DNA from: Candidatus Poribacteria bacterium
Lineage (GTDB): Bacteria > Poribacteria > WGA-4E > WGA-3G
Direction: 5' to 3'
Assembly: GCA_965214095.1 (NCBI GenBank)
Contig: OZ243938.1
Location: forward strand, 2,816,001-2,880,000
DNA length: 64,000 nt
Each line of letters opens with the position of its first letter. The first letter of the stretch is position 1. A program made the translations under genes and the position numbers. The notes under the pieces are model-generated. The model saw only the letters and a program-made list of their open reading frames with translations. It searched no databases and had not been told where the DNA came from. Positions 11,178 through 16,347 of the stretch are shown here, piece by piece.

Positions 11178-11206
11178 TTGATTATTCACGGTCTATATGC
11201 TATTAT
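11178..11206 (+). promoter_or_regulatory. Sigma70-type promoter for the DUF488 operon, probably near-leaderless
   Basis: TTGATT-17 bp-TATTAT with extended -10 TG; ATG lies 9 nt downstream with no SD. Confidence 0.5.
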
Positions 11207-11215
11207 CTTTATATT

Positions 11216-11770
11216 ATGGATAAGAAAACAGACACCATTCCAATTTGGACGATAGGCTACGGAAGCCGTTCCATTTCTGAGTTTATTGATGTCCTTAAGC
11301 AATATGAGATTGCCTATCTTATTGATGTTCGATCGGTCCCACATTCAGGTTATAAGCCAGAATTCTCCAAAAATCAACTTGCCAATGAAGTTGAACAACA
11401 CGGCATTCGTTATGTGTTTATGGGTGACCTGCTCGGTGGGAAACCTGATGATGAATCGTGTTATGTTAACGGAATTGTTGATTATGAGAAGGTTAAGGAG
11501 GCGGAATTCTATCAGCGTGGTATTGAACGTCTACGGACTGCTTGGACGCAACAGCAGCGTGTTGCACTTATGTGTGCTGAGGGGAAGCCAGAACATTGCC
11601 ATCGCACTAAACTTGTCAGTGCTACCCTCACTGATGAAGATTTGCCTGTTGTCCATATTGACGAAAATAGTGAAGAGATGACTCAGGAACAGATCATTGA
11701 TCGGATTACGGGTGGACAGATGAATTTGTTTGGGGATGATATGTTTCACTCGCGTAAGAAGCACAAATAA
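11216..11770 (+). CDS. DUF488-family protein (1)
   Basis: IWTIGYGSRS, LIDVRSVPHS, Y..MGDLLGG and LMCAEGKPEHCHR motifs. Start moved from 10937 because that extension overlaps the divergent gene. Confidence 0.85.
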   Translation: MDKKTDTIPIWTIGYGSRSISEFIDVLKQYEIAYLIDVRSVPHSGYKPEFSKNQLANEVEQHGIRYVFMGDLLGGKPDDESCYVNGIVDYEKVKEAEFYQRGIERLRTAWTQQQRVALMCAEGKPEHCHRTKLVSATLTDEDLPVVHIDENSEEMTQEQIIDRITGGQMNLFGDDMFHSRKKHK

Positions 11771-11776
11771 TATATT

Positions 11777-12268
11777 ATGAAAAAGATTAAAGTAGTCACC
11801 ATCGGTGTATACGGTTTTGATGAGACAAGTTTTTTTGACGCACTGTGCAAAGCAAGAGTTGATACCTTCTGCGATATTCGTAGTCGGCGCGGGGTCCGTG
11901 GTTCTACCTATGCATTCGCGAATAGTAAGAGGCTGCAAGCACGGCTTGTTGAACTTGGCATCCGATATATTCATCGTAAAGATCTTGCACCGACGCAATC
12001 TGTCAGAGAGAAACAAGCGGCAGCAGATAAAGCAACGAAAACCGCTAAACGCAAACGGACTGAACTCGGTGAAGTTTTCATTGAAGCATATCGCACTGAA
12101 TGTCTTGATGCATTTGAACCTAAAAGTCTATTTGAGGAATTAGAATCGGATGCTCGGATTGTGGCATTTTTCTGTGTGGAAACTGTCCCAGAGGCATGCC
12201 ACCGCTCATTAGTAGCTGAAAAACTTGCACAAGCATTCAATTGGGAGGTAGAAGATATCTTACCGTGA
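11777..12268 (+). CDS. DUF488-family protein (2)
   Basis: VVTIGVYG, FCDIRSRR, YIHRKDLAP and FCVETVPEACHRSLVA motifs. Confidence 0.85.
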   Translation: MKKIKVVTIGVYGFDETSFFDALCKARVDTFCDIRSRRGVRGSTYAFANSKRLQARLVELGIRYIHRKDLAPTQSVREKQAAADKATKTAKRKRTELGEVFIEAYRTECLDAFEPKSLFEELESDARIVAFFCVETVPEACHRSLVAEKLAQAFNWEVEDILP

Positions 12269-14766
12269 GAGTATTGATTGTTGCAAAAACACGAATGGGT
12301 AGCGGTGCGTGTATCGGAGGGATAACAGAGATAGGAGAGAGTGTCCGACTCATTCCATTGAATGCTGATCCGCATGATGGTGCAAACAGAGAATATGAGA
12401 TTGGTGATATTTGGGAAATTACTGGTGAGCCAGAAACTTCGCTGATTCCACCACACAATGAGAACTTTGTTGTCCATAGTCAGTTACGACTTTATAGGAC
12501 AGAAGATACGAGAGAATTGATAGGTGCGATTGAACTCTTGATGCCGTCGAAAACAGGAAATCCGTTGAAGTTGTATGAAGGCTTACTGAAAATTACAGAC
12601 AGCGGCTCGCTCTACCTTCCACCGGGAAGTGATGTGCTACCTTACAGCACCATGTTTTGGCGAACAGATAAGGAACTCATCCTTGAAACAGATAAAAAGA
12701 AACTACGTTATCGTTATCCGACTGAAAATGGCGGTTGTACGCTCACTTTTGTCGGCTATCAAGATCCGCCAAGAGCAATTCCAAAAGGTACACTTCTGCG
12801 TGTGTCACTTGCTCATTGGTGGCGACCAGACAACACGTCACACGTTGAACTGCGTTGCTACGTGCAAATTTCCGGATGGTTTTTTGAAGAGGTGGAACCA
12901 GTGCTTCCGGAACCGTCCCGAAAAATGAAACTGCCACCATCTCCGATTTTAACACAAAATCCTTTAGAAATGCTTGAGAATGTTTTTGGGCATGAAGAGT
13001 TTCGTCCACTTCAGAAGGCTATCATTGATAATATCCTCAACAGACAAAATGCCCTGGTTGTTCTACCAACAGGGGGCGGAAAGTCACTCTGCTATCAATT
13101 GCCAGCACTCATTTTTGATGGATTAACTGTGGTTGTTTCTCCACTAATTGCCCTCATGCAAGATCAGGTGATGCAGTTGGAACAGAAAGGAGTCAGTGCA
13201 GCTTTTCTCAACTTTATGATTGAGGAAGAAGAGTATGTGGTCACAATGCATAAGGTCAGACAGGGTGAAATTAAGTTGCTTTATCTTGCCCCTGAAACAC
13301 TTGTTAAGTCTGAAATACTCGTAATGCTTGATGAAGCGAACGTCGCATGCCTTGCGATTGATGAAGCGCACTGCATTTCGCAGTGGGGACACGATTTTCG
13401 TCCAGATTATCGAGAATTAGTCTCCATTCGTCAACGCTTTCCAAACGCTGTTTGTGTGGCACTAACAGCTACAGCTACTCCACGGGTTCAAGATGATATT
13501 AAGCAGTTGTTAGGAATTCATGATGATAACAAGTTTATTGCCAGTTTTGACAGACAAAACCTTTTTATCGCCGTTGAGCCAAGGTTTAATTTACTCGGGC
13601 AAACATTAACATTTCTTAATAAGCATACGAATGGATCTGGTATAATCTACTGTCAAAGGAGAAAACAAGTTGAATCGCTTTATCAGGATTTAGTAGCACA
13701 TGGGATTTCGGCACTGCCCTATCACGCAGGACTTGATGGTGAGACCCGCAAACAAAATCAAGAGGCTTTCATTAATGGTGACACCCGAGTGATAGTTGCT
13801 ACAATTGCGTTTGGGATGGGCATAGATAAAGCAGATGTACGTTGTGTCCTACATGCTGGATTACCAAAGAATCCAGAATCTTATTATCAGGAAATTGGAC
13901 GCGCTGGCAGGGATGAGCTCCGATCAGCATGTCTCTTGTTATTTGATAATGAAGATGCTGAAATTATCAACGATTTCATTGATCAAGGTGCCCCATCTGA
14001 ACGGGAAGGACGACTCAAACGATTACAGACGCTTGTTTCATGGGCGACTTCAACAGAGTGCCGCCGCAAAGAATTGCTAGGCTATTTCGGAGAAGAATAC
14101 GAGACACAGAATTGTGGAATGTGTGACAACTGTTACAATACTGAAATAGAACAGGTTGACTTGACAGAACCAGCGCAAAAATTTCTCTCTGGTGTTTACC
14201 GAACTAATCAGATTTTCGGAGAAGTATATATCATTGATGTTTTAAGAGGTTCACGACGAAAAAAGATTCTTGATAACGAGCATGACAAAATCAAGACCCA
14301 TGGCATTGGCAGAGAGTATAACAAGGACCAATGGCGATATTTGGCACATCAATTCCTCAAACACCAACTGTTAGAGCGAGATTCGCGGTTCGGTAGTCTT
14401 TGTTTAACAAAAAAAGGATGGGACATCCTTAAAAATAGAGAGAAATTTTGGGGACTTCCTGTAGATACAGTAAATCACGTAACCGAAATGGTAAATACTT
14501 ATGAATCAATATCCGAACCAAACCTATCCGCTCCTGAACTTTTCGACCAACTTCGTGCCAAGCGTAAAAGTATAGCAGATCAGGAACGGTTACCAGCATT
14601 CTGTATTTTTCACAACAAAACGTTGCTAACTATGGTGACAGATTTTCCGCAAACCAAAGAAGCCTTTATGCAGATTCGTGGTGTTGGACAAGTGAAAACA
14701 GAAAAGTATGCTGATATTTTCTTGCCGGTTATCCAGGCGTATTGCGAGGAACAGGGAATTGATTGA
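12265..14766 (+). CDS. recQ: RecQ helicase with an extra ~210-aa N-terminal domain (Dual-OB-like)
   Basis: PTGGGKS, DEAHCISQWGHDFRP, TATAT, ATIAFGMGIDK, YYQEIGRAGRD, Zn motif CRR..CGMCDNC, RQC and HRDC regions. GTG start overlaps the upstream TGA (GTGA). Confidence 0.9.
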   Translation: MRVLIVAKTRMGSGACIGGITEIGESVRLIPLNADPHDGANREYEIGDIWEITGEPETSLIPPHNENFVVHSQLRLYRTEDTRELIGAIELLMPSKTGNPLKLYEGLLKITDSGSLYLPPGSDVLPYSTMFWRTDKELILETDKKKLRYRYPTENGGCTLTFVGYQDPPRAIPKGTLLRVSLAHWWRPDNTSHVELRCYVQISGWFFEEVEPVLPEPSRKMKLPPSPILTQNPLEMLENVFGHEEFRPLQKAIIDNILNRQNALVVLPTGGGKSLCYQLPALIFDGLTVVVSPLIALMQDQVMQLEQKGVSAAFLNFMIEEEEYVVTMHKVRQGEIKLLYLAPETLVKSEILVMLDEANVACLAIDEAHCISQWGHDFRPDYRELVSIRQRFPNAVCVALTATATPRVQDDIKQLLGIHDDNKFIASFDRQNLFIAVEPRFNLLGQTLTFLNKHTNGSGIIYCQRRKQVESLYQDLVAHGISALPYHAGLDGETRKQNQEAFINGDTRVIVATIAFGMGIDKADVRCVLHAGLPKNPESYYQEIGRAGRDELRSACLLLFDNEDAEIINDFIDQGAPSEREGRLKRLQTLVSWATSTECRRKELLGYFGEEYETQNCGMCDNCYNTEIEQVDLTEPAQKFLSGVYRTNQIFGEVYIIDVLRGSRRKKILDNEHDKIKTHGIGREYNKDQWRYLAHQFLKHQLLERDSRFGSLCLTKKGWDILKNREKFWGLPVDTVNHVTEMVNTYESISEPNLSAPELFDQLRAKRKSIADQERLPAFCIFHNKTLLTMVTDFPQTKEAFMQIRGVGQVKTEKYADIFLPVIQAYCEEQGID

Positions 14767-15813: not shown

Positions 15814-16347
15814 TTATTGCGTGGACAAGGAATCAGTCAAGTTCGGTAACCATCGTGAAAAGAAATGGATCGCCTCATCATCTTGGCGATGTGGTGCAAG
15901 TAGGTATTTTCCTTTAGATCTTTCTGAATAGCCAAGAACATAGAAACCGATTGAATGATGGTATCCAACAGCAACAATGCCAACCGCATTAAGACCGATG
16001 GCGATCACACCAACTGCGTTTGTCCCGATGGCGACAACCCCTACAACGTTTACCCCGAAAACAAACACCCCTGCCATGTTAATACCAACTGAGACTATGC
16101 TGATGGCGCATACGCCTAATGTAATAACACTATAATGAATGTTCCCTCCATCAAATATAGCACCTATATCCATAAACCAAGAAGTGAGCAGATGTGAAAA
16201 ATCCCAACTGCGTATAGGAATGCATATAGTGATAAAAGTTATGAAGGTTATTAATACTGCGTAAACGATGCTCCACTTTACCAAATAAGGCTTAAATGCA
16301 TTTTTAAAGTTTTCAGCGTTTGACATATCTTGTGATGTATCTTGCAT
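15814..16347 (-). CDS. Membrane protein with a period-5 glycine repeat
   Basis: Hydrophobic segments and GINMAGVFVFGVNVVGVVAIGTNAVGVIAIGLNAVG; AGGAG RBS; lies between mnmA and miaA. Confidence 0.7.
   Translation of the reverse strand: MQDTSQDMSNAENFKNAFKPYLVKWSIVYAVLITFITFITICIPIRSWDFSHLLTSWFMDIGAIFDGGNIHYSVITLGVCAISIVSVGINMAGVFVFGVNVVGVVAIGTNAVGVIAIGLNAVGIVAVGYHHSIGFYVLGYSERSKGKYLLAPHRQDDEAIHFFSRWLPNLTDSLSTQ

Follow-up and report, generated by a model that had tools for sequence, protein, structure and literature searches.

We describe a three-gene operon that couples two enzymes of the DUF488 family and a predicted tandem-OB domain, DuOB, to a complete RecQ helicase. The operon lies in a 64,000-nucleotide stretch of the genome of a Candidatus Poribacteria bacterium (GenBank assembly GCA_965214095.1, contig OZ243938.1, positions 2,816,001 to 2,880,000, forward strand), which we call the window. 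Candidatus Poribacteria are sponge symbionts. The operon encodes, in order, DUF488A, DUF488B, and a fusion protein, DuOB::RecQ (Table 1). An initial annotation had proposed a candidate nucleic-acid repair or anti-phage system. The interpretation that we favor, to which we assign a probability of roughly 45%, is that the operon specifies a module, coupled to RecQ, whose task is to process DNA ends or gaps in the upkeep of the cell's own genome. From bacteria to humans, genome stability depends centrally on RecQ helicases, and we are aware of no bacterial RecQ equipped with an enzymatic accessory module of its own. Here, gene order, translational coupling, and two recurrent fusions, three independent links in all, connect a complete RecQ with a predicted tandem-OB protein and with two enzymes of predicted phosphatase fold, in at least five phyla.

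The proposed sequence of events is as follows. RecQ would unwind a gap, a stalled fork, or a broken end, and DuOB would hold the exposed strand or terminus. The DUF488 pair would then act on the terminus or on a sugar of the DNA, where it would remove or transfer a phosphate-linked group such as a 3' or 5' phosphate-type adduct that acts as a block, and the cleaning of the end would permit synthesis or recombination to proceed. A QxxLF motif in the tail of DUF488A could tether the unit to the beta sliding clamp at primer–template junctions. The ancestral core, DUF488A–DUF488B–DuOB, would also work in genomes that lack RecQ, with RecQ added on. If the module does process DNA ends or adducts, it would extend the DUF488 family to a new chemistry and RecQ-dependent repair by a new branch. 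As a defense system, it would amount to an immune module armed with a helicase and equipped with a HIN-domain-like sensor. Both outcomes are directly testable.

A first argument for genome maintenance is that the RecQ part is orthodox and complete, and that no other complete RecQ was found in the genome. Specifically, all five RecQ Pfam domains score above their gathering cut-offs, the GGGKS and DEAH motifs are visible in the translation, and residues 235-826 align to positions 3-591 of the 591-position NCBIfam recQ equivalog model TIGR01389 with 692.7 bits (cut-off 640.2). The initial annotation had read the RecQ as complete, and the protein indeed possesses the full domain set of canonical RecQ, as in Escherichia coli: helicase core, Zn-binding domain, RQC, and HRDC. 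Unlike canonical RecQ, it adds the 205-residue DuOB at its N-terminus and a proline-rich linker, and it is translationally coupled to two DUF488 genes. The genome assembly (5.2 Mb, four contigs, 94.5% complete) holds a second RecQ-family gene, encoding a 547-amino acid paralog (L002:1495-3138; G000:C1, at about 1.38 Mb) that has a helicase core and a C-terminal cysteine cluster matching RecQ_Zn_bind, the sole other such match. Because this paralog is partial, covering positions 7-352 of the 591 in the recQ model, and falls below the cut-off, the fusion stands alone as a complete RecQ among those found in the genome, and housekeeping is therefore no less likely a role for it than defense. The initial annotation had named, as a finding that would count against its proposal, a sole housekeeping recQ with no DUF488-dependent phenotype; the first half of that description fits this genome. 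Four genomes with the fused type were checked. In one (G151), the fused RecQ is the sole recQ above the cut-off; in G153 and G155, it is the best recQ match, reported in pieces that lie below the cut-off, and the other RecQ-family matches are partial paralogs. Many Poribacteria orthologs carry two to four tandem copies of HRDC at the RecQ C-terminus (L003:7497-8102, L005:7488-8378, L040:7632-8225, L051:858-1715), and the window protein carries one. Tandem HRDC domains are known from Deinococcus RecQ.

A second argument comes from the chromosomal setting, which is a housekeeping one with partly conserved synteny. The neighbors of the operon in the window are genes for a membrane SpoIIE-type phosphatase, miaA, a small membrane protein, and mnmA; no known defense system lies beside it, and GC content is flat over the region, with no anomaly. 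In the 5-kb flanks of the 38 full Poribacteria loci described below, the SpoIIE gene is present in 17 and miaA in 21. A defense-island setting was considered for the window operon and rejected in view of the housekeeping neighbors (SpoIIE-type phosphatase, miaA, and mnmA).

The linkage of the three genes is tight and, as shown by the gene-neighborhood survey that the initial annotation had suggested, conserved. All three genes lie on the forward strand. The TAA of DUF488A is separated from the ATG of DUF488B by 6 bases, and the TGA of DUF488B overlaps the GTG of the fusion gene as GTGA, precisely as first annotated. The GTG start at 12265 is supported by two observations: homologs of DuOB::RecQ begin with MKVLIVAKT at the same point, and, in 45 of 46 Poribacteria-type loci, the DUF488B frame ends at the base where the DuOB match begins. 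The survey, which used the fusion protein as query, covered 51 RecQ-related loci from species-representative genomes. DUF488A, DUF488B, DuOB, and RecQ occur in this order in 38; in 3, DUF488A is followed directly by RecQ; 1 is a C-terminal fragment; and 9, all from other phyla, encode plain RecQ. A separate search, with a DuOB alignment as query, showed that about 490 genome stretches (488) encode a relative. Among the best 80 of these 488, DUF488A and then DUF488B lie directly upstream of DuOB on the same strand in 76, and the other 4 loci are cut by contig ends. Thirty-four of the 80 fall outside the Poribacteria, namely in the Chloroflexota, Verrucomicrobiota, Acidobacteriota, Methylomirabilota, and Planctomycetota, and the gene order of the module spans at least five phyla. 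By Pfam, DuOB is fused to RecQ in about 28 of the 33 assessable non-Poribacteria loci, usually with a C-terminal HTH_40 domain; the flanking genes vary by locus. The DuOB::RecQ fusion is not rare: the DuOB part is matched by 868 database proteins of 458-1458 amino acids, and the best 120 of the 868 all carry RecQ domains. In some loci, DUF488B and DuOB are separated by an insert, which measures about 1 kb in L111 and consists of a DJ-1/PfpI gene in L129 and of a RelB antitoxin gene in L148. At L024:2624-4506, in the same genome as L103:3609-5506, an insertion of about 1.3 kb splits DUF488A and leaves DUF488B and DuOB::RecQ intact.

The core of the module is DUF488A–DUF488B–DuOB, to which RecQ has been added. 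DuOB is matched by 712 of 1.84 billion representative proteins, most of them stand-alone proteins of 190-230 amino acids. A second locus scan, centered on stand-alone DuOB, yielded 77 new, more distant loci. DUF488A and DUF488B are both present in 74 of them, which bears out the association of DUF488 with stand-alone DuOB that the initial annotation had mentioned. DuOB stands alone, with no RecQ within 7 kb, in 66 of the 77 loci; it is fused to RecQ in 10; and a broken RecQ lies next door in 1. One genome with a stand-alone module is without RecQ (the recQ model finds nothing better there than a match of E 2.4e-8).

A third argument is of the "Rosetta stone" kind: DuOB and DUF488A are each recurrently fused to RecQ, and each is also found fused to a superfamily 1 (SF1) helicase. 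Besides RecQ, the fusion partners of DuOB include an SF1 helicase that carries a TBP-TOTE domain (P0196), an HSP70-like ATPase (P0266), and HRDC by itself (P0137). DUF488, for its part, is fused to an SF1/UvrD-like helicase in P0286. In two of the surveyed loci (L030 and L032), DUF488A and RecQ form in-frame, single open reading frames of 802 and 796 amino acids, respectively; the junction lies just past a conserved SRK tail motif, and DUF488B and DuOB are absent. A database search with the DUF488A part recovered 80 proteins of 441-1404 amino acids, 72 of which combine DUF488 with the helicase domains, RecQ_Zn, and RQC, nearly all with HRDC in addition; many of the 72 come from Chloroflexota. 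The DUF488A::RecQ fusions (L030, P0272-P0350) share with the window operon the same RecQ lineage and the same DUF488A orthogroup, including its GQxxLFG...SRK tail, but they lack DUF488B and DuOB and join DUF488A straight to RecQ past SRK.

How the two kinds of fusion are related can be judged from a quick maximum-likelihood tree of 61 RecQ cores, from which 3 partial rows were dropped and in which branches carry SH-aLRT support only. With two exceptions, the module-linked RecQs group in a single supported set of 51 rows (97%). This set includes one unfused RecQ, from a 13-kb contig of a Terriglobia genome, and the other eight unfused RecQs lie outside. The DUF488A::RecQ rows are scattered among the DuOB::RecQ rows, with at least eight changes forced by supported branches. 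On this sequence tree, the simplest reading would be that repeated deletions of DUF488B and DuOB have welded DUF488A onto RecQ.

Finally, DuOB is rare on mobile DNA, and the flanks of stand-alone modules contain few defense genes. DuOB was found in 1 of 72,556 plasmids and in 0 of 50,697 phage records. Among 135 open reading frames flanking 15 stand-alone modules, 7 match a PADLOC model at E <= 1e-15; most of these matches are generic, and one is a clear, adjacent PDC-S01.

What the parts of the module could do is suggested by their folds. DuOB matches Pfam PF22557 over residues 1-205 and the full profile (positions 1-210 of 210; E 1.1e-24, 88.1 bits, cut-off 27). Its AlphaFold model is confident (predicted local distance difference test [pLDDT] 93.4, pTM 0.89) and all-beta, with two barrel-like halves. 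The best Foldseek matches are HIN-200 proteins (AIM2, IFI16, p202, p204, and MNDA; E 1.5e-5 to 1e-3, TM-scores 0.33-0.40), followed by Teb1, POT1, Deinococcus SSB, and the Oxytricha telomere-end protein. All full-length structural matches are tandem-OB proteins, at weak scores. The OB fold that the initial annotation had assigned to the N-terminal domain is borne out by the full-length PF22557 match and by a Foldseek result made up only of OB-fold nucleic-acid binders, and the proline-rich linker that it had noted behind this domain is seen in the translation. From the model, DuOB is predicted to be a tandem-OB nucleic-acid binder without a close solved relative; the scores are weak, and the fold class is consistent. 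A search of solved structures with the DuOB profile returned one chance-level row (E 0.74), and DuOB does not belong to the HIN-200 sequence family. What DuOB has in common with HIN-200 (AIM2, IFI16, and p202), RPA70 DBD-A/B, POT1, and TEBP is the predicted two-OB arrangement, the sole class of structural matches. In the DuOB alignments, the polar and cysteine residues C16, H64, E66, R179, S181, C198, Q201, and S203 (window numbering) are invariant. As judged from the sequences, this set exceeds the needs of a plain DNA-binding surface and hints at a metal site or a catalytic role.

DUF488A and DUF488B are the only DUF488 genes of the source genome, and they fall into separate orthogroups of ancient origin: with its own profile, either protein reaches about 300 bits, against about 20 with the profile of the other. 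Both match Pfam PF04343 (DUF488; DUF488A: E 1.3e-22, 81.1 bits; DUF488B: E 2e-12, 48.3 bits; cut-off 22.2). On PF22751 (DUF488-N3a, the "active N3 subclade"; cut-off 27), the window proteins score 23.1 bits for DUF488A and 25.5 bits for DUF488B, and orthologous DUF488B proteins from other phyla score 27.2-34.6 bits. The C-x-E-x5-C-H-R motif that the initial annotation had noticed in both paralogs is invariant across 43-sequence alignments of each (C120, E122, C128, H129, and R130 in DUF488A; C133, E135, C141, H142, and R143 in DUF488B). In the AlphaFold model of DUF488A (pLDDT 91.7), C120 closes a strand and C128-H129-R130 opens the helix that follows, which is, in the model, the geometry of a phosphate-binding loop. 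The fold matches of DUF488A are cysteine-dependent phosphatases of the protein tyrosine phosphatase (PTP) fold, including RNA 5'-phosphatases, and the N-terminal domains of class III methylases, with scores near the commonly seen level. PTP-fold phosphatases that act on nucleic-acid ends, such as the RNA 5'-phosphatase domain of the mammalian capping enzyme, baculovirus RNA 5'-phosphatase, and PIR1, have in common with DUF488A a Rossmann-like fold, a strand-end cysteine, and a helix-start arginine. A search of solved structures with the DUF488A sequence gave no match. The assignment of DUF488 to the rhodanese-phosphatase superfamily, which the initial annotation had mentioned, thus agrees with the fold of DUF488A, but the weak scores fall short of proof.

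The putative clamp tether lies in the tail of DUF488A, which reads ...TGGQMNLFGDDMFHSRKKHK. Its QMNLF, of the form Q-[LM]-x-[LM]-F, resembles a clamp-binding peptide, the beta-clamp-binding consensus being QL[SD]LF, and may tether the protein to the beta clamp. The motif Qxx[LMI]x?F is present in 74 of 79 DUF488A tails from RecQ-linked loci. In a second, mostly stand-alone set, it occurs in 35 of 75 DUF488A tails overall and in 11 of 11 that are RecQ-linked, and it is found in 0 of 74 DUF488B tails. G167 and Q168 of DUF488A are invariant in the 43-sequence alignment.

The distribution of the module shows which of its parts travel together. Among 151 genomes of the phylum, DuOB is present in 101 and DUF488 in 136; in control genomes, DuOB was found in 0 of 14. 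By hand count, at least two DUF488 matches occur in 99 of the 101 DuOB-positive genomes, and the 50 DuOB-negative genomes contain at least two matches in 11 cases, one in 24, and none in 15. DUF488B and DuOB are gained and lost together. Within the window's genus, DuOB is present in 19 of 37 other genomes. No full RecQ was found in three complete DuOB-negative congeners and two sister-genus genomes; the short paralog (frames of 584-657 amino acids) is the only RecQ-like gene in these five operon-less relatives. The three congeners keep a DUF488 of the A type, still beside the SpoIIE gene in two. In a third, which lacks DUF488B, DuOB, and RecQ, an intact DUF488A is followed by a 17-residue remnant of the DUF488B N-terminus (L064:7262-7312, 76% identity), a deletion scar. 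DUF488B, DuOB, and RecQ are lost together and DUF488A stays; therefore, the segment is dispensable, and DUF488A has a role of its own. recQ is dispensable in many bacteria. In a DuOB-less congener, four co-oriented genes (533, 356, 316, and 589 amino acids; L066:1122-6783) lie between miaA and DUF488A, at the position of DUF488B and DuOB::RecQ.

A number of observations weigh against a role in own-genome maintenance. Within the genus, 19 of 37 other genomes have DuOB and three complete congeners are without a full RecQ, a patchy pattern such as accessory or defense genes typically show. Both DUF488 genes match the PADLOC defense candidate PDC-M45: DUF488A matches PDC-M45B (E 1.2e-51) and DUF488B matches PDC-M45C (E 4.7e-13). 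Similarly, the DuOB-SF1 helicase fusion P0196 matches PADLOC PDC-M16A (E 1e-260) and carries the "TOTE conflict system" domain. The single plasmid match, L229 on Rhodothermus marinus DSM 4252 plasmid pRMAR01 (NC_013502.1 46430-48221), is a stand-alone DUF488A–DUF488B–DuOB module that lies 123 bp upstream of, and co-oriented with, cas1 (525 amino acids, long form), cas2, a J-domain gene, cas6, and csx2. The RecQ tree, a quick search only, is without unfused RecQs from Chloroflexota and Verrucomicrobiota. The clamp idea, in particular, is weakened by the AlphaFold model of DUF488A, in which the tail has a pLDDT of about 80 and QMNLF sits in a loop before the last strand (178-182), packed on the domain. 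Given this packing and the nearly fixed spacing from LF to SRK, QMNLF could be a structured loop or an active-site lid rather than a free peptide. Moreover, stand-alone Bacteroidota DUF488A tails read G.G[TE]VDLFG, without the motif Q.

The PDC-M45 matches of both DUF488 genes make an anti-phage or conflict function the main rival, although we consider it rather unlikely. The hypothesis is that the operon is a RecQ-armed form of PDC-M45: DuOB would sense foreign DNA or its ends, RecQ would unwind them, and the DUF488 enzymes would modify or disable the termini. The PDC-M16A match of the TBP-TOTE protein, the patchy distribution with its deletion scar, and the R. marinus module beside cas1-cas2-cas6-csx2 all fit such a system, as do the PDC-S01 adjacent to one stand-alone module and the identity of the best structural matches of DuOB, which are innate-immune DNA sensors. 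PADLOC's 145 PDC candidates, moreover, are described as drawn from genes embedded in BREX, DISARM, and type I restriction–modification loci and as untested there (Payne et al., bioRxiv 10.1101/2024.01.29.577857). The main text of that preprint, however, contains none of the words PDC-M45, DUF488, and RecQ (bioRxiv 10.1101/2024.01.29.577857), and our literature search found nothing that names PDC-M45 and hence no test of it. Also against a conflict system are the housekeeping genes with partly conserved synteny around the operon in the source genome and its relatives, the standing of the fusion as the only complete RecQ found in the genome, the near absence of DuOB from plasmids and phages, and the few defense matches in the flanks of the 15 stand-alone loci. 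In addition, a PADLOC scan of DuOB-only proteins gave no match for the window DuOB domain or for any of 8 others (8/8). These scans thus do not link PDC-M45A to DuOB; among the PADLOC families matched by the full RecQ fusion, the best 25 of 35 were examined.

The known system that most resembles the operon is the DUF488-DUF488-DuOB module itself (PF22557, PF22751, PADLOC PDC-M45), which has the same gene order and whose DUF488 proteins correspond to PDC-M45B and PDC-M45C. The two differ in that DuOB is a separate protein of 200-230 amino acids in that module and the N-terminus of a complete RecQ here, that the window DUF488B falls just under the DUF488-N3a cut-off, and that DuOB proteins match no PADLOC model in our scans. 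The likeness to PDC-M45 supplies a name and not a mechanism. Burroughs and Aravind (2023) are said to have treated the DUF488-DUF488-DuOB module, in work whose abstract reportedly speaks of "nucleic-acid-modifying systems". The initial annotation knew of no characterization of the DuOB::RecQ fusion, and our literature search likewise found no experimental work on it or on the DUF488-DUF488-DuOB module.

Quite improbable, in our view, is a modification system or a redox or sulfur-transfer system. Here, the two invariant DUF488 cysteines would form a persulfide or disulfide relay like those of rhodanese and ArsC, and a base or backbone modification would be installed on, or removed from, single-stranded DNA exposed by RecQ. 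The rhodanese/PTP fold family does include members with cysteine relays, and in each paralog the loop is flanked by two invariant cysteines with a spacing of eight residues. Among the VIA matches of DUF488A, class III methylase domains rank first, but these matches are limited to the N-terminal Rossmann-like half, and the surveyed loci contain no conserved sulfur-mobilizing, S-adenosylmethionine-dependent, or base-modifying neighbor.

A role as an accessory to CRISPR adaptation or DNA-fragment processing, in which the module would trim or prepare fragments such as prespacers, is highly improbable: the pRMAR01 module, co-oriented and directly upstream of cas1-cas2, is a single locus among more than 150 surveyed, with no cas genes beside the operon in the window or at the other scanned loci, and although the E. 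coli DUF488 gene yeaO was a hit in a screen for host factors of CRISPR adaptation, where the origins of newly acquired spacers were skewed in its absence, the YeaO protein is a distant DUF488 with a single domain, and the preprint, in its passage on yeaO, favors an indirect explanation (bioRxiv 10.1101/2024.05.24.595836). Our literature search on DUF488 found no functional work beyond that passage. An ssb gene lies 2 kb upstream of the pRMAR01 module.

Returning to genome maintenance, we speculate that DUF488A–DUF488B–DuOB could be the core of an unrecognized, widespread bacterial DNA-repair pathway that acts at primer–template junctions or stalled forks. In this more far-reaching scenario, which we regard as unlikely, two cysteine-dependent PTP-fold enzymes, one of them tethered to the clamp, would clear a phosphate-linked block from DNA presented by a tandem-OB protein, and several phyla would have welded the unit to RecQ via DuOB or via DUF488A. 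If so, this would be the first dedicated enzymatic accessory module of a bacterial RecQ. The module itself is already catalogued computationally (Pfam PF22557 and PF22751; PADLOC PDC-M45). What is added here are the DUF488A::RecQ fusions and their repeated origin, the co-variation of DUF488B and DuOB, the pattern of loss within a genus, a RecQ-less carrier of the core module, the conserved tail motif of DUF488A, qualified by the structural model, and several culturable carriers, namely Rhodothermus marinus DSM 4252, Mucilaginibacter pineti 47C3B, Polaribacter marinivivus CECT 8655, and Bacteroides vicugnae A2-P53.

The initial annotation had placed the three genes behind one promoter. This is plausible, in that the TTG and TAT..AT columns of a promoter-like site upstream of DUF488A are invariant or at least 90% conserved in 16 of 16 aligned Poribacteria upstream regions, but the number of promoter-like sites in the region, 10, is not above chance (8.9 expected from shuffled sequence). 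Because the site ends about 10 nucleotides upstream of the ATG, a leaderless or near-leaderless mRNA would be implied, and the arrangement suggests a single near-leaderless transcript from this putative promoter. Inspection by eye of the 16-sequence upstream alignment, a weak negative, revealed no conserved operator-like palindrome, such as an SOS box, between the promoter elements or around them.

Table 1. Features of the operon, in window coordinates (aa, amino acids; nt, nucleotides)
Feature	Position	Strand	Remarks
Promoter-like site	11178-11206	+	TTGATT, 17-nt spacer, TATTAT, extended -10 TG; ends about 10 nt before the ATG of DUF488A
DUF488A	11216-11770	+	184 aa; orthogroup A
Candidate active-site loop of DUF488A	11573-11605	+	C120-A-E122-GKPEH-C128-H129-R130; strand end to helix start
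QMNLF (residues 168-172), beta-clamp-peptide-like motif in the DUF488A tail	11717-11731	+	Followed by FHSRKK
DUF488B	11777-12268	+	163 aa; orthogroup B; stop codon overlaps the RecQ start codon
Candidate active-site loop of DUF488B	12173-12205	+	C133-V-E135-TVPEA-C141-H142-R143
DuOB::RecQ fusion	12265-14766	+	833 aa; GTG start
DuOB domain, residues 1-205 of the fusion	12265-12879	+	Predicted two OB folds
Proline-rich linker, about residues 206-234	12880-12966	+	Read from the translation; pLDDT of the DuOB model drops to 64 at its end
RecQ proper	12967-14766	+	DEAD 247-409, Helicase_C 447-549, RecQ_Zn_bind 563-623, RQC 628-728, HRDC 758-823

One further gene of the neighborhood deserves mention. 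Between miaA and mnmA, the window encodes a 177-amino acid, glycine-rich membrane protein (15814-16347, reverse strand) with no Pfam match. Among relatives, this protein is 41-64% identical and missing from many loci, and its neighbors are more than 80% identical.

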